Below, one piece after another: positions 1,913 to 51,426 of a stretch of DNA of 64,000 bases (within the stretch, counting starts at the first letter, position 1; every line of letters starts with the position of its first letter). Origin of the DNA: Candidatus Shapirobacteria bacterium (lineage in GTDB: Bacteria; Patescibacteriota; Microgenomatia; UBA12405); the NCBI GenBank assembly GCA_041665485.1, contig JBAYIT010000002.1, positions 5,867-69,866 of the forward strand. The letters run 5' to 3'. The position numbers were made by a program, and so were the translations under genes. The notes under the pieces are model-generated. The model had not been told where the DNA came from. It ran no database searches and saw nothing but the letters and a program-made list of their open reading frames with translations.

Positions 1913-3581
1913 ATTTTTTTTTCCTATTCTTCTCTTGCTTTTAGTCCTGCCAGCCACTAGGTTCTTTTTTCGGTCAGGAGACTATTGGAATATGCACGAT
2001 GATATGCAGGTTATTCGTCAGCTTGATTTTGAGAAATGTCTAACTGATGGCCAGATACCCTGTCGTTGGGTTCCAGATTTAGGTTATGGCTACGGCTATC
2101 CCTTGTTTAATTACTACCCCCCATTGCCCTACATTGTTGGTCAAGTCTGGCGAACTGTCGGAGCTTCGTTTACTGACACTGTCAAGTTTACCGCCCTTAC
2201 CCAAATCATTCTCGGAGCTTTTTTTATGTATCTTCTTGGCGCCTCTCTTACCAATAAATGGGGGGGCTTGATTTCCGCTCTCTTTTTTACCTATGCTCCC
2301 TATCACGCTGTCAATATTTACATTCGCGGTGCTATGAATGAAGCTTGGGCAGCCACCTTTTTCCCCCTGGTATTATATTTCATTAGGCGGGCTATCCTTG
2401 ACTCAAAAGTAAAATATTATCTCGGTATCTCCCTCTCTTTCGGTCTTATTCTTCTGTCTCACAACCCCATGGCTTTGATTTTCGCTCCCCTGGCCATTCT
2501 TTGGTCTCTTTACTGGCTTTTTATTTCCCAAAAACAATTTTTAAAAACAATTGTCTCTTTGGCCATGTCGGTTGTTCTTTCGCTTTTATTTTCTGCCTTT
2601 TACACCCTTCCTCTCTTGGTCGAAACCAAGCTTGTTCAAATTGAATCCATGTTTTCTGGCTATTACCACTATTCTGTTCACTTCGCCACTATAAAACAGC
2701 TCTTTATTAGTAATTTTTGGGGCGACGGTCCATCGGTTTGGGGCACGGAGGACAAAATGTCCTTTATGATTGGTTACCTCCATTGGATTTTGCCCATCTT
2801 TGTTTTTATTGCCTATCTTTTTAAATTTAAAAAAAGTCACAAATTTATAGACTTATTTCCTCCGGCTCTGGTTCTAATTGGTTTTTTCTCTGCTTTCATG
2901 TCTCATGAACGTTCCACTCCCTTTTGGCAAATATTTCCCGTTATTCAAAATGTTCAATTTCCTTGGCGCTTCCTCAATCTAACTACTTTTATCTTTTCCA
3001 CCAGTATTATCTTTCTTGTCAATCTTATTAAGAAGCCCATTTTCTATGTGTTGATTATTACCAGTCTTCTTATTCTTAATCTTGGTTATTTTTATCCGAT
3101 TCATTCCGGGCCGGTCACTGATTCGCAAAAGTTTAGTGGCCAAAGCTGGCGTCTTCTCATCACCGCCAGTATTTATGATTATCTCCCCAAGTCAGCTGAA
3201 ACGGCCCCCAAGTCGCCATCCGTCGGGCTTATTGATGAAATAATCCCGTCAGACATTTCCCTTACTATCAAGAACGAAAAACACGGCACCGATTGGTTCT
3301 TTGTAAACTTTAATCTCAATAGCGACGCTCAAATTATCTTTGGTCAGCTGGACTTTCCCAACTTTTTAATTCTTGACCAAGATCAACCAATTCCCCATTT
3401 TACTGAAAACAAGCTTGGTCGGATTGGAGTTAATCTTAAAGCCGGTAATCATCAGCTTTTTGCCAAGCTTCAAAATACTCCCATCCGGACTCTTGCCAAT
3501 CTACTTTCTCTTGTCTCTTGGATTAGTCTATTTATCTGTTTAATTCGCTATCTGTGGCTGAAATTAACACCTCGGAAATAA
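1878..3581 (+). CDS. Large polytopic membrane protein, GT-C-like family B (paralog of 26367..27872)
   Basis: 567 aa. After TM1 comes the conserved motif 'HDDMQVIRQLDFEKCLTDGQIPCRW...PLFNYYPPLPY', matching 'QDDMHVFRLQEFHQCLIDGQIPCRY...PIFNFYPPLSY' in the paralog. Many TM segments, then a soluble C-terminal domain. The start may instead be M8 at 1899. Confidence 0.65.
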   Translation: MSILKKSMFKNKFFFPILLLLLVLPATRFFFRSGDYWNMHDDMQVIRQLDFEKCLTDGQIPCRWVPDLGYGYGYPLFNYYPPLPYIVGQVWRTVGASFTDTVKFTALTQIILGAFFMYLLGASLTNKWGGLISALFFTYAPYHAVNIYIRGAMNEAWAATFFPLVLYFIRRAILDSKVKYYLGISLSFGLILLSHNPMALIFAPLAILWSLYWLFISQKQFLKTIVSLAMSVVLSLLFSAFYTLPLLVETKLVQIESMFSGYYHYSVHFATIKQLFISNFWGDGPSVWGTEDKMSFMIGYLHWILPIFVFIAYLFKFKKSHKFIDLFPPALVLIGFFSAFMSHERSTPFWQIFPVIQNVQFPWRFLNLTTFIFSTSIIFLVNLIKKPIFYVLIITSLLILNLGYFYPIHSGPVTDSQKFSGQSWRLLITASIYDYLPKSAETAPKSPSVGLIDEIIPSDISLTIKNEKHGTDWFFVNFNLNSDAQIIFGQLDFPNFLILDQDQPIPHFTENKLGRIGVNLKAGNHQLFAKLQNTPIRTLANLLSLVSWISLFICLIRYLWLKLTPRK

Positions 3582-8523: not shown

Positions 8524-9292
8524 TAGTTTAAGTGTTATTATCGTTGCCGGCAATGAAGAAAAGATGATTGCCGATTGTCTTAAAAGTTGCGCTTTTGCTG
8601 ACGAAGTCATCATTTGCCACAACTCAACCGACAACACCATTAAATTGGCCAAACAAATTTATCCTAAAGTTATAATTAAAGAGAACAAACTTAACCAACA
8701 AAAATTTGATTTTGCCGTCGCTAGAAACATCGGCTTTAAAGAAGCTCGTTCATCTTGGGTTTTGTATTTAGACTGTGATGAGAGAATTACCTTGGCCCTA
8801 TCCAAAGAAATTATTAAAATAACTAAGTCCAAAGAAGTTCCCTTTACTAACTACGACATCCCCCGAGCCAATTACTTTTTGGGTCAGCGGGTTAGATATG
8901 GTGGTACTTATCCAGATTACGTTAAAAGGCTCTTCTTGAGAAGTAGTTTTTCCGGTTACGTCGGTTCACTTCATGAACAGCCTCAAATTTCTGGTCCTAG
9001 CTCTGTTTTAAAAAACGACTTAATTCATTTAACCCACCGCGATCTGACTTCAATGTTGGAGAAAAGCATAAAGTGGACTGTTATTGAAGCCGAAATGCTT
9101 CACGATTCCGGTCATCCACCGGTAGTTTGGTGGCGATTTCCTCGGATGATGTTCACTAAATTTTGGCAAAGATTTGTAAAGGAACAAATGTGGCGCGACG
9201 GTATCGTTGGTCTTATTTCCGTCATTTTTGAAGTCTTCGACACCTTTATAATTTATGCCAGATTATGGGAAATACAACAAAAAAGGAATTAA
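8510..9292 (+). CDS. GT2 glycosyltransferase with C-terminal TM helix (ArnC-like)
   Basis: 'LSVIIVAGNEEKMIADCLKSC..DEVIICHNSTDNT' and a 'DCDE' DXD motif. C-terminal hydrophobic segment 'GLISVIFEVFDTFIIYARLWE'. Confidence 0.7.
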   Translation: MVVGNSLSVIIVAGNEEKMIADCLKSCAFADEVIICHNSTDNTIKLAKQIYPKVIIKENKLNQQKFDFAVARNIGFKEARSSWVLYLDCDERITLALSKEIIKITKSKEVPFTNYDIPRANYFLGQRVRYGGTYPDYVKRLFLRSSFSGYVGSLHEQPQISGPSSVLKNDLIHLTHRDLTSMLEKSIKWTVIEAEMLHDSGHPPVVWWRFPRMMFTKFWQRFVKEQMWRDGIVGLISVIFEVFDTFIIYARLWEIQQKRN

Positions 9293-26377: not shown

Positions 26378-27872
26378 ACGTCGGCTTATCCCAATCGTCT
26401 TAATAATCTGCCTCTCTCTTCTCTCCGTTTACCGGTTGTTGCGTCCTGGTTTTCTTTCTCTTCAAGACGATATGCATGTTTTTCGCTTACAGGAATTCCA
26501 CCAGTGTCTTATTGACGGCCAAATTCCCTGCCGTTATTCCACTACTGCCTCTTTCAATTACGGCTCACCCATTTTTAATTTCTACCCACCTCTTTCCTAT
26601 ATTATTCCCGAATTATTTCATCTTCTTGGTTTTTCTCTTGCCGACAGCATTAAACTCCTTCTCATTTTTTCTGCTGTTATCCGTGGTTTAGGCATGTACT
26701 TTCTTGCCGGTCCAGTTGCTGCCATTCTTTATATTTTCGCCCCTTACCAAGCCCTAAACACCTTTGTTCGTGGCGCTATTGCCGAAAACCTAGCCCTAAG
26801 CCTTCTGCCTTGGCTAATTCTGAGTTTAAAATATAAAAGATTTGCTTCCGCCACTCTCTTTTCAACTCTGCTCCTATTAACTCATCAACTTTCTATCATC
26901 GCCTTTCTGCCAATAATTGCCGGATTTTGCCTAATCGAAAAAATATCTTTTAAAAAATTAATAACTATTTCAACTCTTTCTCTTGGTCTTTCTTCGTTTT
27001 TTTTATTGCCCTCTATTTTCGAAAGGGGATTCACTACTAATAGCACTATGTTTACCGACTATTTTGATTATCATCTCCACTTTGTCAGTCTTTATCAAAT
27101 TTTTATCTCTCGCTTTTGGGGTTATGGTGCTTCCAATTGGGGAATAGGCGATGGCATGGGTTTTACTATTGGCCAAATTCAATTTATCATCCCATTTTTA
27201 CTTTTTTTATTTTCTCCAAAAAAGATTAAACTCAAAATTATCCCCTTACTTGGTCTTGCTCTTTTCTTTCTTTTCCTCACTCACCAACGTTCTACTTTTA
27301 TTTGGCAAGCCATACCTTTTTTGGCCTTTTTCCAATTTCCCTGGCGTTTTATTGGTCCAGCCGTTTTTCTGTTCTCTTATGCTTCAGGTTTAATCAAAAT
27401 TAATCGGTTGTTTATCATCCTCATTGCCGTCTTGGCCATCACCTCCAATATAAATTTCTTTCATGAAGACTTGTGGTATAAAAATCCAGATTTTCTCACT
27501 CAAAAATCAGAATCAGGTTTTCGTGATTTTTGGCCAAAATCCGGTAATCAATTTCCAGACAAACCCGCTCCTGCCACCACTGATGTTTCTAATTTCTCCA
27601 AAACCTCAAACCAAATAAATTTCACCTCCAATTTTGACAAGCCAACACTTACCGAATTGCCCTTAGTCTATTTTCCCGGCTGGAAAGCCACCATCAACCT
27701 TAGGCCCGCTAGTATTATCGTCAACCCTGATCTTGGCCAGATAAACCTTGATATTCCTGCCGGTAAAAACCAAATAAATTTAACTTTTGCCGATACTCCA
27801 ATTAGAAAAGCAGGTAACATTATTTCTTTGGGAACACTAGTTATTATATTAATAACCCTCCTACCACTATGA
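26367..27872 (+). CDS. Large polytopic membrane protein, GT-C-like family B (paralog of 1878..3581)
   Basis: 'LQDDMHVFRLQEFHQCLIDGQIPCRY...PIFNFYPPLSY' matches the motif of 1878..3581. The ATG at 26367 (MKTKRR) is preferred over the 26316 ORF start, which would overlap the upstream gene by 62 nt. Confidence 0.65.
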   Translation: MKTKRRLIPIVLIICLSLLSVYRLLRPGFLSLQDDMHVFRLQEFHQCLIDGQIPCRYSTTASFNYGSPIFNFYPPLSYIIPELFHLLGFSLADSIKLLLIFSAVIRGLGMYFLAGPVAAILYIFAPYQALNTFVRGAIAENLALSLLPWLILSLKYKRFASATLFSTLLLLTHQLSIIAFLPIIAGFCLIEKISFKKLITISTLSLGLSSFFLLPSIFERGFTTNSTMFTDYFDYHLHFVSLYQIFISRFWGYGASNWGIGDGMGFTIGQIQFIIPFLLFLFSPKKIKLKIIPLLGLALFFLFLTHQRSTFIWQAIPFLAFFQFPWRFIGPAVFLFSYASGLIKINRLFIILIAVLAITSNINFFHEDLWYKNPDFLTQKSESGFRDFWPKSGNQFPDKPAPATTDVSNFSKTSNQINFTSNFDKPTLTELPLVYFPGWKATINLRPASIIVNPDLGQINLDIPAGKNQINLTFADTPIRKAGNIISLGTLVIILITLLPL

Positions 27873-29464
27873 AAAAGTGGCCAAAATTTCTATTTGTCGT
27901 TATTCTTCTTCTATCCGCGTTTATCCGCTTCTATCAGTTAGATCATTTCCCTCCCAGCCCCAATTGGGACGAAGTTAGTCACGGTGTTAATGCTCAAAGT
28001 ATCTTAGAAACGGGAGCCGATCAATGGGGCCAAAAATTTCCTCTCTTCAATTTTCGTGCTTACGGCGATTATCCAACTGTCGCCAACATGTATTTCACTA
28101 TCCCTTTTATTAAAATCCTTGGTCTCAACACTTTATCTATTAGATTACCTTCGGCCATCTTTGGTTTTCTTTTCGTTCCTTTAATTTTCTTTTTATGTCA
28201 GATTTTGTTTGGCCAAACCAGAATCTCTCTCATCGCGATGTTTATTACTGCCATTGCCCCTTGGTCCTTTTTCCCTTCCCGCGCTGTTTTTCAATCAACT
28301 ACCGCCATTACTTTTCTTATCGCCGCCATTACTTTCTTTTTTTATTTTTATTATCATCATAAATCTTATCTCATATTTCTTAGTTCTCTCTTCTTAGGCT
28401 TATCCATGTACGCCTACCACAACACCAGGCTAATCGCCCCTTTGATCTTTGTCTATCTTTTTTGGTCAATCAAAAAATCATTTAAAAAAGTAGTTTTCCC
28501 TATCCTGTTATTTTTATTTTTTGCCGTCCCTTCTTTAATTAATCTTCTTTCTCCTGAATCCCGGGCCCGTGGTTATTGGGTTTCTTTAATTAACCCCAGT
28601 GCCATCAATTTAATCAACGAACAACGTCGGCTTTATGAAGGCCCACCAATTCTAAATTTGATCCTTCACAATAAAGTTACTTACGCCGTCCCTCAAATTA
28701 CCCTTAATTTCTTGAATTTTTTCAACCCCATTCCTTTATTTTTTACTGGTACCGGCCAATATCAATTCAATGTTGCCGGAAAGGGTCTCCTCTTTCCCGT
28801 TTGGCTTCCGTTTTTCTATCTTGGATTGTTATCTCTTTGGCGTCATCGCCAAAAACCATCTTATCGGTTTTTAATCTTTTGGCTTATTGTCGGCTTATTT
28901 CCTGCCATTATTACCTCCGGTGATTTTGCTTCCATCCGCGCCACCACTGCCATGCCTGTTTACCTTATTCTCACTGCCCTAGGCATCAATCAGTTTCTTT
29001 CCTCCCTTCCAATAATTCTTATCATTATTGCTTCACTTTTATCTTTTTCTAATTATCTTTATCTTTACATCACCTCTTACGCTCAAAATTACTCCCAATC
29101 TTGGCAATTTGGCTACCAAGAAGCCATAGAAATCATCAAACCCATCTACTCTAAGTACGACCATATCTATTTTACTAAAAAATACGGCGAACCCCATGAA
29201 TTCATTCTCTTCTTTTGGCCTTGGAGTCTCAAAAGCTTTCAGAATGATCCTAATTTAGGTTGGGACTATCATGCTTATTGGTATTGGGTCAACTCCTTTG
29301 ATAAATTTATATTCCTCAATGATTGGGAGATAACCAAATATTCTTTCCCCCCCAATAGTCTTTTGGTAACCTCTCCCCAAAATTATTCTGGCAAACCGGT
29401 TAAAATATCAGCAGTTAAGTTTCTTGATCAGTCGGTCGCTTTTGACATTGTCGGCTATGAATAA
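27869..29464 (+). CDS. ArnT/PMT-like GT-C membrane glycosyltransferase (paralog 5; first of three tandem copies)
   Basis: 'FPPSPNWDEVSHGVNAQSILETGADQWGQKFPLFNFRAYGDY' D-E loop. C-terminal domain 'WQFGYQEAIEIIKPIYSKYDHIYF...FILFFW'. Confidence 0.7.
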   Translation: MKKWPKFLFVVILLLSAFIRFYQLDHFPPSPNWDEVSHGVNAQSILETGADQWGQKFPLFNFRAYGDYPTVANMYFTIPFIKILGLNTLSIRLPSAIFGFLFVPLIFFLCQILFGQTRISLIAMFITAIAPWSFFPSRAVFQSTTAITFLIAAITFFFYFYYHHKSYLIFLSSLFLGLSMYAYHNTRLIAPLIFVYLFWSIKKSFKKVVFPILLFLFFAVPSLINLLSPESRARGYWVSLINPSAINLINEQRRLYEGPPILNLILHNKVTYAVPQITLNFLNFFNPIPLFFTGTGQYQFNVAGKGLLFPVWLPFFYLGLLSLWRHRQKPSYRFLIFWLIVGLFPAIITSGDFASIRATTAMPVYLILTALGINQFLSSLPIILIIIASLLSFSNYLYLYITSYAQNYSQSWQFGYQEAIEIIKPIYSKYDHIYFTKKYGEPHEFILFFWPWSLKSFQNDPNLGWDYHAYWYWVNSFDKFIFLNDWEITKYSFPPNSLLVTSPQNYSGKPVKISAVKFLDQSVAFDIVGYE

Positions 29465-31034
29465 AACAAAAATAATTTTATTCTTAATTGTTCTACTTGG
29501 TTTTCTCCTAAGATTCTACCGAATAGGGGAGTATCCTCCGCTTCTTTGGGACGAAGCCGCTCTCGGTTACAATGCTTATTCACTTCTTCAAACCGGAAGG
29601 GACGAACATGGTGCCTTTTTTCCATTAATTCTCAAATCTTTTGGCGATTACAAACCGGCCATTTATTCTTATCTTTCTATTCCCTTTGTCTTCCTTTTTG
29701 GTCTTAATGAAACATCTGTCAGGCTGGTTTCTATTATTGCCGGCTGTCTTTCCCCTTTGTTTTTGTACTTTCTTATTAATAAAATCGATTCAAAAAAACA
29801 GAAAGTCGCCTTACTATCAGCTTTAGTATTGGCTGTCACTCCTTTTGCTATCCACTTTTCCCGTGGCGCTTGGGAAACTAACCTATTGGTTTTTGAAATT
29901 ATTGTTAGCCTCTATTTCTTCTTTTCCCAAAAGTTTTTTCTTTCCGCTTTTATTCTTTCTCTTTCACTTTACACCTATCAGTCAGCCAAAATGCTTGTTC
30001 CCTTTATCTTCTTACCTCTGATTCTACAATCTCTGAAACAACACCCAAAAATTATCTTTACCAAGTTCCTCATCCCAATTCTTATCTTTTCTCTCCCGCT
30101 CCTATGTGGTCTTCTGTTTTCTCAAGACTCGGGTCGTCTTAAAGTCGTTAGTCTCTTTTCCTATCCTCAAAGCCAGGAAGAGATATCAGTTATCAAAAAC
30201 GAAACGGGAAACTTTGATTATTTGCTCTTCCACAATAAATATCTAAATTTTGGCCGCCAGTTTTTAACCCGTTACTTTAATCACTTTTCTCCCCGTTTCT
30301 TATTCTTTGATGGCGATTGGCAATCTCCCCGCCATAGCGCCCCTTACATCGGCGTCCTCCTCCTCCCCTCTACCTTGTTCCTAATTTTAGGACTGATTAC
30401 TAATTACCGTTTACCAATTACCAAATTATTCCTCTACTGGCTTCTTATCGCCCCCATTCCTTCTTCTCTCACCCGCGATCTCCTTTCCGGCGTCCGCTCC
30501 CTCTTTCTTGTCATCCCTCTCACTTATTTCACTGCCCTCGGTATCCGCCGGATTACGGATCACCGTTCACGATTCACGTATCTAGTTACTAGTATCATGT
30601 TTCTAGTATCTTTAATCTATTACTCCGATCTCTACTACAGCCATATGGTCAAAAAGTCACCTTTCGATTTTCTTTATGGTAATAAGGAAGTTGCCCAATT
30701 TGTCATTAACAACCAACAAAATTACGATCGTATTTATTATTCCGACTTTTATGGCCAACCTTACATCTTCTATCTTTTCTACTCCCAATATTCCCCCAAG
30801 AAATACCAAGCCAAAAATCATTTAAGTTTATCCGGGCCAGACATTGGACATGTTGAAAAAATCGACAATATTCTTTTTGCTTCACCCGATTTCAATTTCA
30901 TTAGAAATCAACCTCAAAAAATTTTAGCCATTTTTAGTTTTGACGAAGTAGAGAGGCAGGGGATAGATAAAAAATTATTAACCCCTATTTCTACTATTGG
31001 CAATATTACCACCTACTATGCCTACTCTAATTAA
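29457..31034 (+). CDS. ArnT/PMT-like GT-C membrane glycosyltransferase (paralog 6)
   Basis: 'YPPLLWDEAALGYNAYSLLQTGRDEHGAFFPLILKSFGDYKP'. C-terminal domain 'YGNKEVAQFV...YIFYLFYSQY'. The ORF begins at 29424, but M12 at 29457 (MNKTKIILF) is the likely start. Confidence 0.7.
   Translation: MNKTKIILFLIVLLGFLLRFYRIGEYPPLLWDEAALGYNAYSLLQTGRDEHGAFFPLILKSFGDYKPAIYSYLSIPFVFLFGLNETSVRLVSIIAGCLSPLFLYFLINKIDSKKQKVALLSALVLAVTPFAIHFSRGAWETNLLVFEIIVSLYFFFSQKFFLSAFILSLSLYTYQSAKMLVPFIFLPLILQSLKQHPKIIFTKFLIPILIFSLPLLCGLLFSQDSGRLKVVSLFSYPQSQEEISVIKNETGNFDYLLFHNKYLNFGRQFLTRYFNHFSPRFLFFDGDWQSPRHSAPYIGVLLLPSTLFLILGLITNYRLPITKLFLYWLLIAPIPSSLTRDLLSGVRSLFLVIPLTYFTALGIRRITDHRSRFTYLVTSIMFLVSLIYYSDLYYSHMVKKSPFDFLYGNKEVAQFVINNQQNYDRIYYSDFYGQPYIFYLFYSQYSPKKYQAKNHLSLSGPDIGHVEKIDNILFASPDFNFIRNQPQKILAIFSFDEVERQGIDKKLLTPISTIGNITTYYAYSN
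30551..30620 (+). repeat. Degenerate 7-nt periodic array at the homologous position of paralog 29457..31034
   Basis: gattacg gatcacc gttcacg attcacg tatctag ttactag tatcatg tttctag tatcttt aatctat. Confidence 0.6.
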
Positions 31035-32607
31035 AAACAATTTTTGGTTACTACTCATTATTTTTTTGGCCGCCGTCTTGCGGTTCTACAATATTGGTAA
31101 TTATCCTACTCTTAATCCCGACGAAGCCGCTCTTGGTTACAATGCTTACTCTTTAATTCAAACCGGTAAAGACGAACACGGCGCTTCCTGGCCTCTCCAT
31201 TTTAAATCATTTGGCGACTTTAAACCCGGAGGTTACGTCTATTTAGCTATCCCTTTTATTGCCACCTTTGGTCTTACTCCACTGGCCGTTCGTCTCCCTA
31301 ATCTTCTGCTTTCGCTTTTAACCATACTTTATTTCTATAAAATAGCTTTTTTGTTCACCAAATCGCGACAAATTTCTTTGATTTCAGCTTTGTTTTTAGC
31401 CATTAACCCCTGGCATCTCCATTTTTCCCGTGGCGCTTGGGAATCATCTTCTGCTCTGGCTTTTTTAGTTATTGGTAGCTACTACTTTCTTGTTCGTCGT
31501 TATTTTCTTTTTGTTCTCACTTTTGTCGCCTCTCTCTATCTCTACCACTCTGCCCGTATCGTTGCCCCACTTCTGGCCTTGTCATATCTTTTTATTCATA
31601 AATCATATTTCATAAATCATAAATCAAAATTAATTTTCCCAATACTTATCGGTATTCTCCTCACTTTCCCCGTTCTTTTCTCATTTCTTAAAAACGGTGG
31701 TACTACCCGTTTTGGCGGTGTTGGTTTAACTGCCGACACCGGCCCGTTATCCCGTTCTGAAGAACTTCTTAATCACCACATGAGTACCGCCCTGCCTTTA
31801 AGAATTCTTCATAATCGTCGGGTACTTTATCTTATGTCTTGGGGGCAAAAATATTTTTCCCACTTTGATCTCAATTTTCTTTTTATTAATGGTGATGAAG
31901 TTCCCCGTTCCAAAGTTCCCGATATGGGCCAACTTTACCTTCTTCAACTTCCGTTTCTTCTATATGGTATTTATATTTTCTTTCAATCTAAGATCTATCA
32001 TCTAAAATCTAAGATCTTTGTATTGTCTTGGCTTTTAATCTCCCCCCTTGCCTCTTCTTTCACTTTTCAAGCCCCCTCTGCCCTCCGCGCCCTACCCCTG
32101 GTTATCCCCCTCACTTTTCTCTCCGCCCTCGGCTTTTATTGGTTTACGTATCACCTATCACGTACCTTGTACCTTGTACCTTGTACCTTGTACCTAGTCT
32201 CTTGTCTCTTCTATCTTGATTCTTATCACAATCATTATCAAAAACGCTATCCCTTTGCCTGGAATTATGGCTTTAGTCAAGTTATTCCTTACCTTAATTC
32301 CCAAAAAGACAACTATCAAAATATCTATTTTACTAACAAATACGATCAGCCCTATATTCTCTATCTCTTCTTTTCAAAGTATCCTCCGCAAAAAATTCAA
32401 TCGCAAATAAAACTCACCCCGCCCGATAAATTCGGTTTTTCCACTGTATCCCAAATCGACAACATCTACTTTGGTAAAATTGAGTGGGACAAAATTTCAA
32501 CTAACTCATTAATTATTTCTTCTCCAGACGAAAAAGCCCCAATTCCACCAATTAAAACAATTGAAGTTCAACCCAACAAAGCTGTTTTCAATATTTATCA
32601 AAAATAA
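31018..32607 (+). CDS. ArnT/PMT-like GT-C membrane glycosyltransferase (paralog 7); contains three heptanucleotide-periodic arrays
   Basis: 'YPTLNPDEAALGYNAYSLIQTGKDEHGASWPLHFKSFGDFKP'. C-terminal domain 'WNYGFSQVIPYL...YILYLFFSKY'. The ORF begins at 30997; M8 at 31018 is likely. Confidence 0.7.
   Translation: MPTLIKNNFWLLLIIFLAAVLRFYNIGNYPTLNPDEAALGYNAYSLIQTGKDEHGASWPLHFKSFGDFKPGGYVYLAIPFIATFGLTPLAVRLPNLLLSLLTILYFYKIAFLFTKSRQISLISALFLAINPWHLHFSRGAWESSSALAFLVIGSYYFLVRRYFLFVLTFVASLYLYHSARIVAPLLALSYLFIHKSYFINHKSKLIFPILIGILLTFPVLFSFLKNGGTTRFGGVGLTADTGPLSRSEELLNHHMSTALPLRILHNRRVLYLMSWGQKYFSHFDLNFLFINGDEVPRSKVPDMGQLYLLQLPFLLYGIYIFFQSKIYHLKSKIFVLSWLLISPLASSFTFQAPSALRALPLVIPLTFLSALGFYWFTYHLSRTLYLVPCTLYLVSCLFYLDSYHNHYQKRYPFAWNYGFSQVIPYLNSQKDNYQNIYFTNKYDQPYILYLFFSKYPPQKIQSQIKLTPPDKFGFSTVSQIDNIYFGKIEWDKISTNSLIISSPDEKAPIPPIKTIEVQPNKAVFNIYQK
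31596..31637 (+). repeat. Degenerate heptamer array (TCATAAA-like x6)
   Basis: tcataaa tcatatt tcataaa tcataaa tcaaaat taatttt, inside 31018..32607 (encodes 'FIHKSYFINHKSKLI'). Confidence 0.65.
31987..32021 (+). repeat. Degenerate heptamer array (ATCTAAG-like x5)
   Basis: atctaag atctatc atctaaa atctaag atctttg, inside 31018..32607 (encodes 'QSKIYHLKSKIF'). Confidence 0.65.
32149..32217 (+). repeat. Heptanucleotide-periodic tandem array including perfect (GTACCTT)x4
   Basis: tatcacc tatcacg gtacctt x4 gtaccta gtctctt gtctctt ctatctt, inside the ArnT-like paralog 31018..32607 (translated '...YHLSRTLYLVPCTLYLVSCLFYL'). Confidence 0.85.
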
Positions 32608-33390
32608 ATGAAAAAACCAACAATTTCCATTGCCATCGCCACCTACAATGAAGCTGACAACATTAAACAATGCCTCAAAGCTGTTGTCGATTGGGCTGAT
32701 GAAATCGTCATTTACGATGCTGAATCCATTGACGATACCGTCAAAATCATTAATACTTTCCCCAAAACCAAACTAATCACTGGCCCCAACCATCCTATCT
32801 TTCATATTAATAAGCAACGAGCTATTGACGTTTGTAAATCTGATTGGATTCTCCAGCTTGATGCTGATGAGATTGTCACTCCAGAGCTTAAGTCAGAAAT
32901 TTTGACCACCATTTCAAATAACCCTTCAGAAAATGGTTTTTGGATCGACCGTAAAAATTATTTTCTTGGACGATTCTTAACCAAAGGTGGCGTTTACCCA
33001 GATCCAACTATCCGTCTTTATCGTCGCAATAAAGGCAAATTACCATGTAAAGATGTTCACGAACAGGCAAGAATAATTGGTAGTGTTGGCCATCTTAAAT
33101 CCGACCTTCTCCACTATGCTGACCCTTCTTTTCAACGTTACTTAATGCGCAACAATCGCTACACTGGCCTAATTGCCACCGAATTAGAATCCCAAAAAGT
33201 TCCTCTTAATTTATTCTTCGGCCTAAATTATTTTCTTCTCAAGCCTATTATTAACTTTTTTTCTACTTATTTTCGCCACAAGGGTTTTGCTGATGGTTTT
33301 CCCGGGTTTATCTTTTCTTGGTATTCGTCTCTTCGCTTTCCTATTTCTTTTATCAAATATTGGGAATTAAAAAATGGCAAAACAGATTAA
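32608..33390 (+). CDS. GT2 glycosyltransferase with C-terminal hydrophobic segment (ArnC-like)
   Basis: 'ISIAIATYNEADNIKQCL...DEIVIYDAESIDDT' and 'DADE' DXD. C-terminal 'LFFGLNYFLLKPIINFF'. Confidence 0.7.
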   Translation: MKKPTISIAIATYNEADNIKQCLKAVVDWADEIVIYDAESIDDTVKIINTFPKTKLITGPNHPIFHINKQRAIDVCKSDWILQLDADEIVTPELKSEILTTISNNPSENGFWIDRKNYFLGRFLTKGGVYPDPTIRLYRRNKGKLPCKDVHEQARIIGSVGHLKSDLLHYADPSFQRYLMRNNRYTGLIATELESQKVPLNLFFGLNYFLLKPIINFFSTYFRHKGFADGFPGFIFSWYSSLRFPISFIKYWELKNGKTD

Positions 33391-34447
33391 AGTTGCTCTT
33401 GACATATCTCCCCTCAAAGATGGCAACGCCAACCGTGGCATGGGCTATTATGTCCGCAACTTACTCACCGCCATGCAATCACAAATCTCCTCCAACCCCA
33501 ACTTCAAAAACTTTAAAATTTCAGAAGTTAGAAATTGGAAATTAGAAATTGGAAATTTTGATTTACTCCATATTCCTTACTTCAACCCTTTCTCCCCCTC
33601 CTATCCTATTCATCTCCAAATACCCACAGTCATTACTGTCCCTGACTTAATTCCTATCGCTTACAAAAAACATTACACAGTTGGCATCAAAGGCACACTC
33701 AATTGGTGGCGACAAAAACTATTTCTCAAAAATATTCCCTATATTATCACTATCGCTCACTCTCAAAAATATATCATTCATAAAATTACTGGCTATCCGC
33801 TTGATCGCATTTACGTCACATGGCTAGCTGCCGCCAGCCACTTCAAGCCGGAAACTTCAAAAATAAAACTAAATCAAATTAAGAAAAAATATAATCTGCC
33901 AGACAAATTTGTTCTCTATGTTGGTGATATTAACTGGAATAAAAACATTCCTCGTCTTGTTAGTAGTTGCCTCGATTTAAAATATCCATTAGTTATTGTC
34001 GGTAGCTCCGCCACTAGAAAAAATATTACCGATCATCCTTGGAATCAAGATTTACTTTGGGTCCAATCTCACTCCAATCAAATCACTTTAACTGGTTTTG
34101 TCCCCGACGAAGATATACCTGTCATTTATTCTTTGGCCACTATTTACTGTCAACCATCATATTCCGAAGGTTTTGGTCTACCCTTAGTTGAAGCCATGAA
34201 AACCGGCTGTCCTGTCAGCTATAGTCAAGAGCCAACTTGTCAGGAAATTATGGATTATCACGGTGATTTTTTTGATCCTAACTCTACTGCCGGTCTTAAA
34301 GATTCTCTTAAGAGGCTCTGGTCAGATCCTGAACTTAGGAAAAAGTTAGCAATCGAGGGATTAAAACATTCGCAAATCTTCGACTGGAAACTAACAGCCA
34401 TTCAAACTCTCACTCTTTATTCCCAAATCTACCATGAAAATCACTGA
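33374..34447 (+). CDS. GT4 (GT-B fold) glycosyltransferase
   Basis: 'CQPSYSEGFGLPLVEAMKTGCPVSYS' EX7E region. Carries a GG(A/T)AATT heptamer array at 33523..33557. Confidence 0.7.
   Translation: MAKQIKVALDISPLKDGNANRGMGYYVRNLLTAMQSQISSNPNFKNFKISEVRNWKLEIGNFDLLHIPYFNPFSPSYPIHLQIPTVITVPDLIPIAYKKHYTVGIKGTLNWWRQKLFLKNIPYIITIAHSQKYIIHKITGYPLDRIYVTWLAAASHFKPETSKIKLNQIKKKYNLPDKFVLYVGDINWNKNIPRLVSSCLDLKYPLVIVGSSATRKNITDHPWNQDLLWVQSHSNQITLTGFVPDEDIPVIYSLATIYCQPSYSEGFGLPLVEAMKTGCPVSYSQEPTCQEIMDYHGDFFDPNSTAGLKDSLKRLWSDPELRKKLAIEGLKHSQIFDWKLTAIQTLTLYSQIYHENH
33523..33557 (+). repeat. Heptamer array (AGAAATT/GGAAATT) x5, with a perfect 14-mer x2
   Basis: agaagtt agaaatt ggaaatt agaaatt ggaaatt, inside GT4 33374..34447 (encodes 'EVRNWKLEIGNF'). 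Confidence 0.8.
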
Positions 34448-35237
34448 GCACTTCCTTTCAGTCATCATCCCTATCTATAAACAAGAGAAAACTATTTTGA
34501 CCGATATTACCAATATTCAAAAAACTCTTGATCAAATCCGCTACGATTACGAAATTATCGCCGTAGTTGACGGTAAAAATATCGATCGATCTTATCAAAT
34601 TCTTAAGAAAGCCAAAATTCCCAAAGTTAAAATTTACGGTTACCCCAACAATTATGGTAAAGGTTACGCTGTCCGTTTTGGTATGGCCAAAACTAAGGGC
34701 GACTATGTTGCCTTTATTGATGCCGGTATGGAAATCGACCCTAACGGCATTTCCATGATTCTCGAGCACATGGAGTGGTACAACGCCGATATTATTGTTG
34801 CCTCAAAAAGGCACCCCGCCTCTCAAGTTAAATACCCGTTAGATCGCCAAATTGTTAGTTTCGGCGCCCATCTTATCGCCAGATTTTTGCTCGGCATTAA
34901 TGTTCACGACACTCAAGCCGGTCTTAAAATATTCAAAAGATCAGTTTTGGTAAAGGTTCTTCCTCGACTTTTGGTAAAAAATTATGCTTTTGATTTAGAA
35001 ATATTATCAGTTTCTAATCGCCTTGGTTTTAATCGTATCTTCGAGGCCCCCATTAAACTTAGTTATGCCTTTGATAGTCTAACTCACGCCGGTAGTTACA
35101 AAACTATTATTAGATGTTTTATTGAATCTCTAGCTGTTTTTTATCGTCTAAATATCATTAAATTTTATGATGACAACAACAAGCGACAATGGGTGTTTAA
35201 TAAAGACCTACAAATGAGAATTAATACCGGCCGATGA
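34434..35237 (+). CDS. GT2 glycosyltransferase, DPM1/GtrB-like (candidate polyprenyl-phosphate hexose synthase)
   Basis: 'LSVIIPIYKQE...YEIIAVVDGKNIDRS...YGYPNNYGKGYAVRFGMAKTKGDYVAFIDAGMEIDP' is the typical DPM1/GtrB-like GT2 core. Confidence 0.65.
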   Translation: MKITEHFLSVIIPIYKQEKTILTDITNIQKTLDQIRYDYEIIAVVDGKNIDRSYQILKKAKIPKVKIYGYPNNYGKGYAVRFGMAKTKGDYVAFIDAGMEIDPNGISMILEHMEWYNADIIVASKRHPASQVKYPLDRQIVSFGAHLIARFLLGINVHDTQAGLKIFKRSVLVKVLPRLLVKNYAFDLEILSVSNRLGFNRIFEAPIKLSYAFDSLTHAGSYKTIIRCFIESLAVFYRLNIIKFYDDNNKRQWVFNKDLQMRINTGR

Positions 35238-36151
35238 AACCCCTATTCTCTGTAATTATTCCCGTTCGTCATCCTACCGACTATCTTGAAGAGACAGTCA
35301 GGGCCCTCGACAAGCAGTCTCTTAACAACTTTGAACTCCTAGTTATTACCGACAAAATAGCCGGTAATGTCTCACCGGCAATTAAGCGTAATCTTGGTGC
35401 CAAGATGGCCAAAGGAGAATATCTTGCCTTTCTCGACGACGATTCTTATCCTTCTTCTGATTGGCTCAAAAACGCCCGAAAACACTTTTCCAAAAATATC
35501 ACTGCCGTCTGTGGCCCTTGTTTAACACCTCCAAGTGATGATGTTTTTCGCCAAGCGTCTGGTCTCGTTTGGTCTAGTTTTCTTGGCAGTGGTGGGGCAG
35601 GGGAGTATCGTAATAATATTGCCAAACCTCGATTTGTCGACGATTTTCCTTCTGTCAATTTGATAGTCAAAAAAAGTGATTTTTTAGAAGTTAAAGGCTT
35701 TAATACTCATCACTGGCCGGGAGAAGACACTATTCTTTGTTTAGATCTGACCCACAAACTTCATAAAAAAATCTTCTATCATCCTAGCGTTCAAGTTTTC
35801 CATCACCGCCGAAAAGTTATAATCCCCCATCTTCAACAAATCACCCGCTACGCTATTCATCGTGGTCTTTTTGCTAAAATCTACCCCCAAACTAGCCTTC
35901 GAATTGGTTACATTCTCCCCTCCCTCTTTATTATATATTTATTATTATTGCCGTTATTGCCAAAGACATTTTTAATTCCACTATTTATCTATCTGCTTCT
36001 ACTTCTATTTACTTTTTTCAATTTTATTTTAAAAAATAGCCTTATCGTTTCTCTTTTGGCTACTATCACCATTCCCATTACTCACCTTTATTATGGTATA
36101 TTTTTCATCCGTGGTTTATTCAAAAATGAACTAAAGTTTATCCCCCTATGA
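35234..36151 (+). CDS. GT2 glycosyltransferase with C-terminal TM helices
   Basis: 'LFSVIIPVRHPTDYLEETVRALDKQSL..FELLVITD' and 'FLDDDSYP' DXD. The C-terminal approx. 90 aa are strongly hydrophobic. Confidence 0.7.
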   Translation: MKPLFSVIIPVRHPTDYLEETVRALDKQSLNNFELLVITDKIAGNVSPAIKRNLGAKMAKGEYLAFLDDDSYPSSDWLKNARKHFSKNITAVCGPCLTPPSDDVFRQASGLVWSSFLGSGGAGEYRNNIAKPRFVDDFPSVNLIVKKSDFLEVKGFNTHHWPGEDTILCLDLTHKLHKKIFYHPSVQVFHHRRKVIIPHLQQITRYAIHRGLFAKIYPQTSLRIGYILPSLFIIYLLLLPLLPKTFLIPLFIYLLLLLFTFFNFILKNSLIVSLLATITIPITHLYYGIFFIRGLFKNELKFIPL

Positions 36152-37578
36152 AAATAGCTATTTCATATCCGCCGTTAGATTCATCAAAGGGCTCTGCCTT
36201 TCTTTCTCAAAATCGCCAGTTTCAGTGGACAAACACCGGTAATATTATTTATCCGGTTATCGCTGCTTATGCCGCTACTCTCCTCCAAAAACTTGGCCAT
36301 CAAGTATTTTGGGACGATGCCATTGTTCAAAAACTTGACTATCAAACCTGGCTTAATCGTCTTATCAGACAAAAACCAGATCTCATCGTTATTGAATCCA
36401 AAACTCCGGTTATTAAACTCCATTGGCAAATCATTAAAGACCTAAAAAGAAGGAATTTGGAAATTGGTAATTGGAAATTGGTTATTTGTTTAATTGGCGA
36501 TCATGTTTCCGCTCTCCCTGAAGAATCAATTAAAAATTCCCCCGTCGACTTCGTTTTAGTCGGCGGTGACTACGATTTCTTGCTTGAAAAACTAGTTAAT
36601 CTCTTGTCCAAAAATAAAATACCAAAAAACAAAATTATAAAAGTTAGCCCAACACACAATCTTGATTCGCTCCCCATAATCGACCGAAAACTAACCCAAT
36701 GGCATCTTTATGCCTACAACAACACCAACTATAAATATAAGCCTGGAGCCTACATCATGTCTGGTCGTGACTGCTGGTGGGGGAGTTGTACTTTCTGTTC
36801 TTGGACATCTCTTTTTCCCGGAAAAACATTCCGTAAATTCAGCGTCGACCACACTATCTCTGAAATCGAAAACTTAGTTAACAATTTTGGTGTCAAAGAA
36901 ATTTTTGATGACTCCGGCACTCTTCCCACTGGCCAATGGCTTGAAAACTTATGTCATCAATTAATTGATAAAAAGTTAAGTCAAAAAGTTAAACTCGGTT
37001 GCAATATGCGTTTTGGTGCTTTGAACCAAGAACAATACTATCTAATGAAACAAGCCGGCTTTCGTTTAGTGCTTTATGGCCTTGAATCGGCTAATCAAAA
37101 AACACTTGACTTAATTAATAAAAATGAAAAGACTTCTGATGCTATTAAAACCTTGCAAATGGCCAAAAAGGCCGGCCTTGAACCACATATCACCGTCATG
37201 ATCGGCTATCCTTGGGAAACTGAATCGGATGCCATCAAAACTCTCAATCTTGCTCGTAAAATTTTTCGAGAAGGGTTGGCCGATAGTATCCAAGCCACCC
37301 GAATTATTCCCTATCCGGGCACGGTTCTCTTTAATCAATCCCTCAAAAATAATTGGCTTTTATCTAAAGATTGGCAGGATTATGACATGCGCCAAAGTAT
37401 CATCAAATCACCCATCAGCTCTGCAAAACAAGAAAAACTAATACTTAGCCTTTTTAAGGGTGTTCTCACTCCTAATTTTCTTATTCGCAAAATCCTTTCC
37501 GTTCGGTCTCTTTATGATATTAAGTTTCTTACTGGCTATGCCATCAAATACCTCCAAAAAATCAGGGATTTTAAATAA
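36148..37578 (+). CDS. B12-binding-domain radical SAM enzyme (class B rSAM)
   Basis: N-terminal cobalamin-binding-like domain ('DFVLVGGDYDF') followed by 'SGRDCWWGSCTFCSW' (CxxxCxxC). 476 aa. Carries a GG(A/T)AATT heptamer array at 36453..36487. Confidence 0.7.
   Translation: MKIAISYPPLDSSKGSAFLSQNRQFQWTNTGNIIYPVIAAYAATLLQKLGHQVFWDDAIVQKLDYQTWLNRLIRQKPDLIVIESKTPVIKLHWQIIKDLKRRNLEIGNWKLVICLIGDHVSALPEESIKNSPVDFVLVGGDYDFLLEKLVNLLSKNKIPKNKIIKVSPTHNLDSLPIIDRKLTQWHLYAYNNTNYKYKPGAYIMSGRDCWWGSCTFCSWTSLFPGKTFRKFSVDHTISEIENLVNNFGVKEIFDDSGTLPTGQWLENLCHQLIDKKLSQKVKLGCNMRFGALNQEQYYLMKQAGFRLVLYGLESANQKTLDLINKNEKTSDAIKTLQMAKKAGLEPHITVMIGYPWETESDAIKTLNLARKIFREGLADSIQATRIIPYPGTVLFNQSLKNNWLLSKDWQDYDMRQSIIKSPISSAKQEKLILSLFKGVLTPNFLIRKILSVRSLYDIKFLTGYAIKYLQKIRDFK
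36453..36487 (+). repeat. Heptamer array GG(A/T)AATT x5
   Basis: ggaattt ggaaatt ggtaatt ggaaatt ggttatt, inside the rSAM gene 36148..37578 (encodes 'RNLEIGNWKLVI'). Same unit as 33523..33557. Confidence 0.75.
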
Positions 37579-50436: not shown

Positions 50437-51426
50437 ATGATACCGAAAAAACGGAAAAAATCAAATAAATCAAAAATTAATCAACCAACTGGAATATCGA
50501 TCGTCATTCCCAATTGGAACGGCCAAGCCTTCTTGCCCTCCTGCCTTAACTCTCTATTAACCTCCATCAAAAAAACCAAAAACATATTGTTTGAAATAAT
50601 CCTTGTCGACAACGCCTCCACCGACAAATCTGTCTCTATCTTTAAATCCAGCGTACCAGCTTACCAGCGTACTAAGGTATTGCGACTCCGTCGCAATACC
50701 GGCTTCGTCTACGCCGTCAACAGAGGCATTGAAGCTTCCCAATTCGATTACGTTTGCATTTGCAACAACGACCTTACTGTTGATCAAAATTGGTTTACCG
50801 AAATCGTCAAAGCCATCCAGCGCACCAGCGAACCAGCGAACCATCGCACCAGCGAACCAATCACCACTTTCTCCGGTCTAGTTCTCAACAAAGATGGCAC
50901 TAAAATCGAGAGCAGGGGGTTAAGATTCTACCCATATGGCAAAGCCGAAAACATCGCCAACGGCCTCCCTTTTTCAAAAACTAACATCCATCATCTAAGT
51001 TCTAAGAACTATCTGATTTGGGGTTCTTCCGCCTCCATAGTCATCTACCACAAACCGACTATTTTAAAAGTTGGTCTCTTTGATGAACGTTTCTTTGCCT
51101 ACGAAGAAGATGTTGACCTCGCCTACCGCCTTAACAAATCCGGCTTCAAAACCCTCTTTGTTCCCACCGCCATCTCTTATCATCTTGGTGGCGGTACTTC
51201 TTCTAAAATGGGCAACTTCCGCCAACAGATGGATTTCAAAAATTGGATTTTATTAATTGCCAAAAACTATAGTTTCAGGGAAATCCTTGCCAATTCTCCA
51301 GTCATTTTCATCGAACGCCTTAGAAACCTCTCCGGTGTTGTTAAATCCACCCCCCTCCCCAAACTCCCTCAAACCCTCTTTTCCGTCTTCTCCCAAACCC
51401 TCTCTGCCCTTATTCAAAAAAAATAA
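50437..51426 (+). CDS. GT2 family glycosyltransferase carrying in-frame octamer-repeat insertions
   Basis: 'ISIVIPNWNGQAFLPSCL...IILVDNASTDKS' and 'ICNNDLTVDQNWF'. Octamer arrays CCAGCG(A/T)A at 50649..50672 and 50818..50865 encode 'PAYQRTK' and 'QRTSEPANHRTSEP'. Confidence 0.7.
   Translation: MIPKKRKKSNKSKINQPTGISIVIPNWNGQAFLPSCLNSLLTSIKKTKNILFEIILVDNASTDKSVSIFKSSVPAYQRTKVLRLRRNTGFVYAVNRGIEASQFDYVCICNNDLTVDQNWFTEIVKAIQRTSEPANHRTSEPITTFSGLVLNKDGTKIESRGLRFYPYGKAENIANGLPFSKTNIHHLSSKNYLIWGSSASIVIYHKPTILKVGLFDERFFAYEEDVDLAYRLNKSGFKTLFVPTAISYHLGGGTSSKMGNFRQQMDFKNWILLIAKNYSFREILANSPVIFIERLRNLSGVVKSTPLPKLPQTLFSVFSQTLSALIQKK
50649..50672 (+). repeat. Octamer array CCAGCG(T)TA x3
   Basis: ccagcgta ccagctta ccagcgta, inside GT2 50437..51426. 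Confidence 0.8.
50818..50865 (+). repeat. Octamer array CCAGCG(A/C)A x6 (degenerate)
   Basis: ccagcgca ccagcgaa ccagcgaa ccatcgca ccagcgaa ccaatcac. 48 nt, in frame, encoding 'QRTSEPANHRTSEPIT'. Confidence 0.8.

Follow-up and report, generated by a model that had tools for sequence, protein, structure and literature searches.

Almost all known cases of surface-glycan phase variation come from cultured, host-associated pathogens. The closest described system is pglE of Neisseria meningitidis, a protein-glycosylation glycosyltransferase gene whose phase variation depends on a heptanucleotide repeat (PMC7157529). Like pglE, the gene examined here, GTC5, has a 7-nt unit within the coding frame of a glycosyltransferase for surface glycans. 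In both genes, adding or removing one unit causes a frameshift, and both are set among other variable glycosylation genes. However, Neisseria isolates are found in both states and the pglE tract is located in a soluble glycosyltransferase, whereas GTC5 has only 4.9 units, placed in the 3' third of the gene and within the last membrane helix of the GT-C enzyme that it encodes. GTC5 also differs in carrying several arrays, in having yielded no off allele, and in belonging to an uncultured groundwater CPR bacterium. The LOS and capsule loci of Haemophilus influenzae and Campylobacter jejuni, with tetranucleotide and homopolymer tracts (PMC2651432, PMC8437040), likewise exploit slipped-strand mispairing of a unit that is not a multiple of three in surface-glycan genes. 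Their tracts, most often found close to the 5' end, are long or highly polymorphic among strains, whereas the arrays described here are constant in length in close strains and mostly degenerate.

An over-representation of heptameric repeats, perhaps due to the footprint of the polymerase, is described for many bacteria (PMC4692102). Examples that this source quotes from a 2007 survey include GGGAATC of Xanthomonas, GGGGA(T/C)T of Nostoc, and the heptanucleotide repeats of Calothrix. As summarized there, these repeats share with our arrays an excess of the 7-nt unit over neighbouring lengths and variation in length and sequence among close relatives, but they are mainly intergenic, share a single unit within each genome, and are sometimes long. 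The arrays reported here are instead intragenic, recur at orthologous positions, employ many units, and reach a cap near five exact units, which places them outside the cyanobacterial STRR/Xanthomonas-type class of few fixed and mainly intergenic units. Marine Beggiatoaceae likewise have abundant, lineage-specific heptamers, the TAACTGA direct repeats (PMC4679880), but these have one fixed unit, are intergenic and non-coding, and have a proposed regulatory role. Literature searches found nothing of this kind for CPR organisms, in agreement with the original prediction.

The DNA analysed is a 64-kb window (64,000 nucleotides) from Candidatus Shapirobacteria, a CPR lineage, to judge by the names given to identical and related proteins. 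GTC5 (31018..32607, + strand) is an intact 529-amino-acid ORF whose product is identical to a collected protein (P0001). It matches the Pfam PMT family (PF02366) with 28.3 bits against a cut-off of 22.7, and its paralogs match PMT and PMT_2. The AF2 model (pLDDT 81.8, pTM 0.86) predicts a membrane domain of many helices and, after it, a soluble domain at the C-terminus. Its best Foldseek match is ArnT (5EZM; E 1.6e-6, TM 0.55, 11% identity in the structural alignment), and further matches include STT3, AglB, ALG9/12, Pmt4, and PglB. A PDB sequence search with GTC5 gave no match, and the relation was found by the fold search. Residues D35 and E36 are invariant among 18 homologs within the sequence PDEAALGYN of the first extracytoplasmic loop, and this acidic motif is presumably catalytic. 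Profile, fold, and acidic motif together indicate that GTC5 is probably a polyprenyl-phosphate-sugar dependent glycosyltransferase of GT-C fold, similar to ArnT and PMT enzymes. The term "ArnT-like" denotes the fold and not the function of ArnT, which is transfer of L-Ara4N to lipid A. The neighbouring paralog, GTC4 (29457..31034, + strand), is 39% identical to GTC5.

The short exact tract in GTC5 spans 34 nt (32162..32195, + strand) and encodes TLYLVPCTLYLV (amino acids 382-393). It comprises precisely 4.86 copies of GTACCTT, uninterrupted and within the reading frame, and is the longest exact tandem repeat of the whole window. Four exact copies had been noted, and four full units are indeed present together with six bases of a fifth. 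The tract is enclosed by an older, degenerate heptamer array (32146..32224, + strand) that encodes amino acids 377-403 and is evident from self-matching at lag 7. The degenerate flanking copies seen at the first reading of the sequence are real. In register, the whole array has about 12 units, which fit YNGTNTC. According to the AF2 model, this array covers the loop at residues 379-381 and the start of the last membrane helix (382-410), and its identity to orthologs is 0.59-0.65, compared to 0.76-0.77 over the remainder of the gene. Because the periodicity is 7 nt and not 3 or 21, the evidence supports an origin of the tract by slippage at the DNA level, and not as a by-product of a low-complexity membrane helix.

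Two further degenerate arrays in the same gene were anticipated and are present, both on the + strand and both encoding inter-helix loops. The first, with TCATAAA-like units (31594..31633; amino acids ~193-206, HKSYFINHKSK), is termed hot spot 3 and shows 85% conservation in the two nearest orthologs. The second, with AATCTAA-like units (31985..32020; amino acids ~323-335, QSKIYHLKSK), is hot spot 4 and is 89-94% conserved in orthologs. The periodicity proposed for the paralog was also borne out: a degenerate array of CGGATTA/CGGATCA units in GTC4 (30549..30620, + strand) aligns to the same protein segment, the last membrane helix, and its units resemble those of the GTC5 array in a related strain (L002). 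GTC4 carries another degenerate array, with the unit ATTACCA, at 30396..30424 (+ strand). Downstream, an array of GAAATTG/GAAATTA units (33520..33561, + strand; amino acids ~50-63, RNWKLEIGN) lies in a GT1-family gene (33374..34447), and a GGAAATT-like array of the same unit family (36447..36491, + strand; amino acids ~100-115) lies in a radical-SAM gene (36148..37578). Both of these positions are lineage-wide hot spots.

Period 7 is the sole strongly enriched tandem period in the window, with other periods nowhere near. Lag-7 segments with at least 20 of 24 matches number four versus 0.03 expected from codon shuffles, and at a threshold of 16 of 21 there are seven versus 0.18 expected. Chance does not explain such numbers. 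All seven arrays fall between 30.4 and 36.5 kb, and the other 57 kb have none. Most are degenerate, with 76-80% matches. No period-7 arrays were found in a 50-kb control region of Escherichia coli (rfb/wca).

The excess extends throughout the lineage. Among 80 related loci (species representatives, 1.31 Mb), we found 165 segments of period 7 (9.3 expected) and 117 of period 14 (6.3 expected), whereas each of periods 6, 8, and 9 gave 55-61 segments for 10-16 expected. Exact arrays of at least three units number 23 for period 7 and two each for periods 6 and 8; they span 3.0-5.3 units, and none is longer. At least 148 of the 165 arrays are inside ORFs, and several of the remaining 17 are artefacts of ORF calling. 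In GT-C and GT1 genes, arrays are about 50 times denser than shuffles predict.

These arrays recur at the same protein positions of GT-C, GT1, and radical-SAM genes while their unit sequences differ. All 47 arrays in GTC5 orthologs are confined to five spans, together 25% of the protein, which coincide with inter-helix loops in the model. GT1 orthologs contain 28 arrays; 25 could be mapped, and 23 of these lie at amino acids 54-62. In radical-SAM orthologs, eight of nine arrays lie at amino acids 107-109. Dozens of different units occur among the related loci. For example, the GTC5 array has five copies of CGGTTCA in L002 and CATATCA/TGTTTCT units in L004, and the paralog in L002 carries the unit TACCTTG. 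The idea that the arrays are binding sites for a protein that recognizes DNA or RNA was considered and dropped, because the units differ between sites and between species. Even where protein identity falls to 36-45%, orthologous sites keep the 7-nt periodicity as units turn over, and such persistence requires either ongoing slippage via frameshifted intermediates or a conversion process.

Variation in array length, which the original prediction would lead one to expect among related genes, was not seen in the orthologs, close strains, and collected proteins compared. The GTC5 array has exactly the same length in orthologs at 80% identity and differs from them in its units, and replacement of units at constant length alters 10-15 residues between close orthologs. 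Strains that are at least 90% identical show no variation in array length (one cluster of 10 members at 540 amino acids and one of eight at 546), and the GT1 hot spot is constant in length in about 60 species. No 7-amino-acid length variants at arrays occur among 166 collected proteins, and cluster members that seemed to be seven residues longer proved to have different start codons. A metagenome scan for close relatives returned nothing above 61% identity.

Since 7 is not a multiple of three, a single slip yields a frameshifted, truncated allele, as had been proposed. The predicted GTC5 products have 402, 397, 390, and 395 amino acids for +1, +2, -1, and -2 units, respectively, and all lack the C-terminal domain, whereas changes of +3 or -3 units remain in frame. 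None of the assemblies contained an out-of-frame allele, although a consensus sequence may mask minority alleles. Likewise, in none of about 150 arrays in the 80 species representatives is the ORF interrupted at the array, and exact look-up in a collection of 15 billion proteins returned no product predicted for alleles of -3 to +6 units. Three apparent exceptions have other causes. A 345-amino-acid protein (P0131) that seemed frameshifted at hot spot 4 reflects sequencing error, as its contig has 1.65x coverage and dozens of 1-3-nt homopolymer deletions. In two loci (L095/L096), the gene is split at hot spot 3 by a scaffold gap of 10 N, and 167-amino-acid products in two others (L097/L098) arise from a nonsense point change, TAT to TAA, at the edge of an array, and not from a change in unit number.

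Indirect evidence for length polymorphism comes from an independent assembly, the Logan contigs of SRR6484324, which match the window without mismatch over 5735, 1391, and 5708 nt. These contigs stop at 32191 and resume at 32166, within the exact tract. Logan assemblies, we assume, use k=31. A simulated k=31 graph of the window allele alone gives a single unbranched path from 1 to 64000, and addition of an allele with at least one extra unit reproduces both ends exactly. An allele with one unit fewer gives ends at 32188/32169, and one with two units fewer gives 32181/32176. The graph breaks are indirect evidence of a longer allele in otherwise identical DNA, although this allele could have three extra units and remain in frame, or could belong to a different locus or to another strain of the sample. 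No assembled sequence contained this allele. The contigs also break in the GT1 array (33556/33530), where no simulated single tandem duplication or deletion of 1-35 nt, no series of up to five copies of a 7-, 14-, or 21-nt unit, and no single-base change reproduces the ends. Among the 80 related loci, none of 110 contig ends, as judged by crude end calling, falls at an array. A divergence of a JGI contig from the window near 39887 was rejected as a polymorphism because it is a 10-N gap.

On balance, we think it somewhat probable that the tract, which belongs to the lineage-wide set of hot spots, is a slipped-strand heptanucleotide microsatellite and acts as a mutational off/on switch. Its length would be changed by slipped-strand mispairing. 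The exact tract is the recently homogenized core of an old array that codes for a loop on the cytoplasmic side and for the last membrane helix. In genes of the glycosylation cluster of Microgenomates, arrays of this type persist at the same small number of tolerant positions, namely the inter-helix loops of GT-C paralogs, one GT1 segment, and one radical-SAM segment. We infer a history in which one unit is gained and another lost, repeatedly, such that total length and frame are kept while one unit type spreads, with different types spreading in different lineages. Changes in the tract would then turn the enzyme off and on at a rate exceeding background. For the phase-variable locus of the original prediction, the slippage tract, the frameshift, and the k=31 break all speak in its favour, but the lack of an out-of-frame allele and the constant length in close strains do not. 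The tract could serve as a slippage-prone frameshift switch, and its switching may be frequent and selected, as in a true contingency locus. The small number of units (4.9, with a maximum of 5.3 in related loci) is short for a high-rate switch and, like the degeneracy of most arrays and the position in the 3' third of the gene, counts against switching. As an adaptive contingency locus, the tract is no more than a candidate.

A less probable but serious possibility is that the arrays are a neutral by-product of a polymerase that slips preferentially by 7 nt. They would then be mostly decayed relics at tolerant sites with no role in switching, and selection would merely purge frameshifts. The prevalence of degenerate arrays, their coincidence with loops, the uninterrupted ORFs, and the invariant lengths among close strains and at the GT1 hot spot are all consistent with this explanation, as is the conservation of two of the three GTC5 arrays above the gene average (0.85-0.94). 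Heptamer over-representation has also been reported as general in many bacteria (PMC4692102). However, neutral decay does not readily account for periodicity that survives to such low protein identity despite unit turnover, for the concentration of arrays in GT-C and GT1 genes and their absence from the other 57 kb, or for the longer allele inferred in identical DNA.

A 20-nt GC-rich palindrome, CCTGCCTGCCGGCAGGCAGG, is inserted inside heptamer arrays of relatives. The palindrome, or a 14-16-nt core of it, occurs in frame inside hot-spot arrays of several loci (L002/L003, L032, L029, and L048). That of L002 is a 21-nt insertion at the equivalent of hot spot 3, and a palindrome-like peptide is found at hot spot 4 of one collected protein (P0149). 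The palindrome is present in multiple copies in unrelated contigs of a viral collection, with 42 sites in all and as many as six in one contig. Direct repeats of 7 nt (at least six of seven matches) flank six of 41 palindrome sites, compared to 0.26 in controls (maximum 3), and flanking repeats of 4, 5, or 6 nt show no excess. When the palindrome is removed, the joined flanks self-match at 0.364 for lag 7, versus 0.26-0.30 for lags 5, 6, 8, and 9. No copy was found in the window with up to three mismatches allowed.

It is conceivable, but decidedly unlikely, that 7-bp target duplications made by this micro-element seed or renew the arrays, with the hot spots being sites that tolerate insertion. 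Its in-frame presence inside arrays of relatives, its multiple copies in unrelated contigs, and the lag-7 signature of its flanks agree with such a role. Yet the palindrome is absent from the window, the L002 insertion has no direct-repeat flanks, and an exact tract of five units would need several duplications that the element does not explain. The element might also merely prefer existing arrays. We know of no transposase or excision mechanism for it.

Slightly less credible again is the view that the arrays serve or allow in-frame variation, in which three-unit (7-amino-acid) changes and unit replacement vary loops and helix ends. A heptamer array encodes one 7-amino-acid periodic peptide in all three frames, as follows directly from the sequence, and the residue changes seen between close orthologs at constant length fit this view, as does the compatibility of a +3 allele (536 amino acids) with the Logan break. 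Against it, the 166 proteins include no 7-amino-acid variants at arrays, and the +3 and -3 products are missing from the protein collection. Finally, the alternative offered with the original prediction, a low-complexity membrane helix or codon bias, can hardly be maintained even though the segment does encode a hydrophobic helix, because protein periodicity or codon bias would yield a period of 3 or 21, a 34-nt exact repeat is beyond composition (0.03 segments in codon shuffles), and a 7-nt period is likewise found in a soluble segment of GT1 and in a radical-SAM enzyme.

In practice, assemblies at k=31 are interrupted at these arrays and some scaffold gaps fall on them, with effects on gene calls in metagenome-derived CPR genomes. 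Even if the arrays are neutral, it is unusual for 7-nt periodicity to be retained at the same protein positions across a phylum-level lineage while units turn over, and this makes them a clean natural system in which to study why bacterial slippage favours heptamers. A broader proposal, which we put forward as rather unlikely, is that Microgenomates (CPR) keep mutability-selected heptanucleotide microsatellites in one surface-glycosylation cluster of GT-C paralogs, GT1, and radical-SAM genes, where they would produce combinatorial on/off glycan variation, with arrays perhaps seeded or renewed by the 20-nt palindromic micro-element duplicating 7-bp targets. If the arrays are indeed selected, they would provide combinatorial glycan variation in host-attached organisms that face phages. 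If they switch genes, they would be the first sign of surface bet-hedging in ultra-small CPR bacteria.

The ArnT-like gene GTC5 (31018..32607, forward strand) carries 4.86 exact copies of GTACCTT at 32162..32195, which is the longest exact tandem repeat of the 64-kb window. Degenerate units on either side extend the 7-nucleotide periodicity to 32146..32224, where about 12 units fit YNGTNTC. The original prediction of a repeat array inside this gene is thus confirmed. The three additional arrays it listed are also real, and the window contains more than these, with a total of seven. All are confined to 30396..36491, and they are distributed among the adjacent GT-C paralog at 29457..31034 (two), GTC5 (three), a GT1 gene at 33374..34447 (one) and a radical-SAM gene at 36148..37578 (one), wherein the GT1 and radical-SAM arrays have a GAAATTG unit family in common. 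Lag-7 segments with at least 20 of 24 matches occur four times against 0.03 expected per window from codon-shuffled controls, and those with at least 16 of 21 matches occur seven times against 0.18. Among periods 3 to 24 in the window, none besides 7 is comparably enriched. Two arrays of 8-nucleotide periodicity, whose unit, like the heptamer, is not a multiple of three, reside inside an ORF at 50437..51426: one at 50646-50679 (CCAGCGTA x3) and the other at 50810-50860 (CCAGCGAA x5.4), which codes for QRTSEPANHRTSEPIT.

GTC5 codes for a protein of 529 amino acids whose Pfam PMT match exceeds the curated cut-off. It is the fifth and last of five consecutive GT-C-like membrane-protein ORFs (24713-32607; 554, 518, 531, 525 and 529 amino acids), followed by GT2, GT1, GT2, GT2 and radical-SAM genes. 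The first two ORFs of this row have Pfam matches under the curated cut-off, and in this genome only the last two carry heptamer arrays. In an AlphaFold model made with 18 homologs (pLDDT 81.8, pTM 0.86), a membrane domain of several helices is followed by an alpha/beta domain at the C-terminus; Foldseek matches this model best to ArnT (5EZM), STT3/AglB/PglB, ALG9/12 and Pmt4. The label 'ArnT-like' therefore holds as a statement about fold, although identity to 5EZM is only 11%. The sources of an identical protein and of its relatives assign them to Candidatus Shapirobacteria, and the window DNA has a copy among the contigs of IMG 3300037810, from a landfill groundwater well.

In this model, the main array codes for amino acids 377-403, a stretch that spans a loop (379-381) and then the beginning of the final membrane helix (382-410). 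Gain or loss of one or two units is predicted to truncate the protein at 390-402 amino acids, upstream of the C-terminal domain, consistent with the proposal that a one-unit change frameshifts the glycosyltransferase. Because such changes would truncate the enzyme, the tract could work like a slipped-strand frameshift switch.

An independent assembly suggests that the tract varies in length. Three Logan contigs from SRR6484324 match the window with no mismatches. The part read of the first, a 30.2-kb contig, covers 26457..32191; the second (1391 nucleotides, recorded in two samples) covers 32166..33556; and the third (16 kb) runs from 33530 onward and crosses the radical-SAM array unbroken. 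The first two share 26 nucleotides of pure repeat. The final bases of the left contig are a single flank base and then 30 of repeat, and the right contig opens with 30 of repeat followed by a single flank base. We built a simulated de Bruijn graph from the two strands of the entire window, with k=31, which we take to be the Logan value and which is supported by the exact fit of the simulated ends. With the window allele alone, the graph runs unbranched from 1 to 64000. When an allele with one, two or three extra units is included, the ends fall at exactly 32191 and 32166, whereas one unit fewer yields 32188/32169 and two fewer 32181/32176. Since only the longer alleles reproduced the observed ends, the SRR6484324 reads appear to contain a GTACCTT tract 38 or more nucleotides long, compared with 34 in the window and the IMG contig, whose surrounding sequence is identical. 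This longer tract could belong to a different locus or to a second strain in the sample.

The same assembly also breaks in the GT1 array (window 33526-33560), with ends at 33556/33530 and a 27-nucleotide overlap; no simulated single tandem duplication, deletion or base change reproduces both ends. Two related loci, L002 and L003, terminate in T plus 30 nucleotides of pure GAAATTG, the same signature as the GTACCTT break, and therefore that strain's GT1 array probably includes a tract of at least 38 nucleotides. Scaffold gaps of N runs adjoin or overlap array sites in other related loci (L055 9977-9986, L065 7935-7944, L095/L096 near 2290, L084 10600-10699), and contig L001 starts at or beside one (window 30624); these assemblies are independent and the observations anecdotal. 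By contrast, the 110 contig ends of related loci, counted crudely, showed no association with arrays.

Heptamer arrays are widespread in this lineage. In species-representative genomes, 80 related loci (1.31 Mb in total) gave 165 period-7 segments against 9.3 expected from codon shuffles, compared with 117 against 6.3 for period 14, 61 against 16 for period 6, 55 against 12 for period 8 and 57 against 10 for period 9. Exact arrays of at least three units number 23 for period 7 and two each for periods 6 and 8, and the longest heptamer array has 5.3 units. More distant Microgenomates loci exhibit a stronger period-7 excess (71 versus 1.0), and a 50-kb control region of E. coli O-antigen and colanic-acid genes has no heptamer arrays. 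At least 148 of the 165 lie within ORFs, and several of the 17 others are ORF-calling artefacts.

When placed on the window proteins, these arrays occupy fixed positions, or hot spots. All 47 arrays of the GTC5 family fall in five spans that make up 25% of the length: amino acids 122-128, 166-174, 201-228, 329-342 and 385-407 (numbered from an ORF start at 30997, and 7 lower when counted from the ATG at 31018). In the AlphaFold model, all five coincide with short loops between helices and the helix ends next to them. Similarly, 23 of 25 mapped GT1 arrays (28 in GT1 orthologs overall) are located at amino acids 54-62, and eight of nine radical-SAM arrays at 107-109. The GT1 site has constant length across about 60 species, yet its units vary (AAATTAG, AAAATTG, AATAGCT, ACATCTG, AATTACC, ACGGATT, AACTCAT). 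A peptide resembling (H/Y)KSYFINHKS, encoded by TCATAAA-type units, resides at hot spot 2, 3 or 4 depending on the ortholog (window hot spot 3 at 31594-31633; proteins P0006, P0009, P0030 and P0156; L102 972-1007), and GAAATTG-type units are found in GT1, radical-SAM and a third family (ORF 1878..3581). This recurrence suggests that array sequence either moved between sites or converged.

The closest orthologs of GTC5, in L002 and L004 (80% protein identity), have main arrays of exactly the window's length made of different units: CGGTTCA x5 then TGTCTCT-like units in L002, and CATATCA-like then TGTTTCT-like units in L004. Comparison of these two orthologs, a check that had been proposed, yields differences in unit sequence and none in array length. 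Nucleotide identity to these loci is 0.59-0.65 within 32146..32224 versus 0.76-0.77 in the remaining gene, while the other two GTC5 arrays are conserved above the gene average. The neighbouring paralog in L002 has TACCTTG units, equivalent to the window GTC5 unit, and CGGATCA-like units of the window paralog resemble the GTC5 array of L002. We infer concerted evolution inside an old array common to the paralogs. If one unit were gained and another lost, one unit type would spread while array length is kept.

A perfect GC-rich palindrome of 20 nucleotides, CCTGCCTGCCGGCAGGCAGG, or its 14-16-nucleotide core sits in frame within hot-spot arrays of several related Shapirobacteria loci (L002/L003 1717-1738, L032 12630-12649, L029 2761-2776, L048 4214-4227). 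The window has no copy, and the searchable literature gave no mention. Unrelated contigs of a viral collection (L108-L142; GC 0.38-0.68) carry the palindrome at a further 42 sites, with up to six per contig. Its flanks carry 7-nucleotide direct repeats (at least 6 of 7 matches) at 6 of 41 sites versus 0.26 in controls, and the joined flanks have a lag-7 self-match of 0.364 versus 0.26-0.30 at other lags. Some copies lie inside tRNA-like sequence (L132 2239-2330, L139 ~500-550, L109 ~8590-8660). In L132, ARAGORN predicts a 92-nucleotide tRNA-Met with the palindrome at the variable-arm position; in L139 it splits a D-loop motif into AGCTCAGTTGGTA and GAGC, and ARAGORN predicts no tRNA there. The palindrome might seed heptamer arrays, prefer them, or be an artefact.

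The tract was also proposed to be a phase-variable contingency locus, and this reading is supported in part. The repeat is probably prone to slippage, and unit changes would shift the frame, but no out-of-frame allele turned up, and in the 80 species representatives frame changes coincide with no array. Membership in this class is not established because both states were sought and only one was observed. Near-identical protein clusters lack length variation (10 members of 540 amino acids; eight of 546), none of the products predicted for alleles of -3 to +6 units has a match in a collection of 15 billion proteins, and a metagenome scan found no close relative. With 4.9 units the tract is also short, and it lies in the final third of the gene. 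These negatives weaken the case for a switch only in part, because minority alleles may be masked in consensus assemblies.

Short members of 90% clusters were rejected as array frameshifts, since they reflect homopolymer errors (1.65x assembly), 10-N scaffold gaps or TAT>TAA nonsense changes. The last is found at codon 168 of a GTC5 ortholog in two independent records (L097 2961-3464 and L098 574-1077, versus L102 470-2158) and may be a natural null allele. It sits in the first unit at the edge of the hot-spot-2 array and makes that unit fit the array consensus (TTCATAT to ATCATAT).

The main rival explanation is that the arrays are a neutral by-product of heptamer-biased slippage, which we consider rather unlikely. 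Heptameric repeats are in excess in many bacteria, for which a polymerase footprint has been proposed as the cause, and were described as mostly intergenic (PMC4692102). The closest precedent for the GTC5 tract comes from Neisseria meningitidis, in which a heptanucleotide repeat controls phase variation of pglE (PMC7157529). Literature searches gave no report of either repeats or phase variation for Patescibacteria, in agreement with the original prediction. The window arrays differ from known systems in their CPR host, in the presence of multiple arrays in one gene, in positions that are kept across a wide lineage while units turn over at constant length, and in a ceiling near five exact units. 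We lean, with some reservation, toward a slippage-prone heptanucleotide microsatellite that is able to switch the enzyme off as the best explanation.
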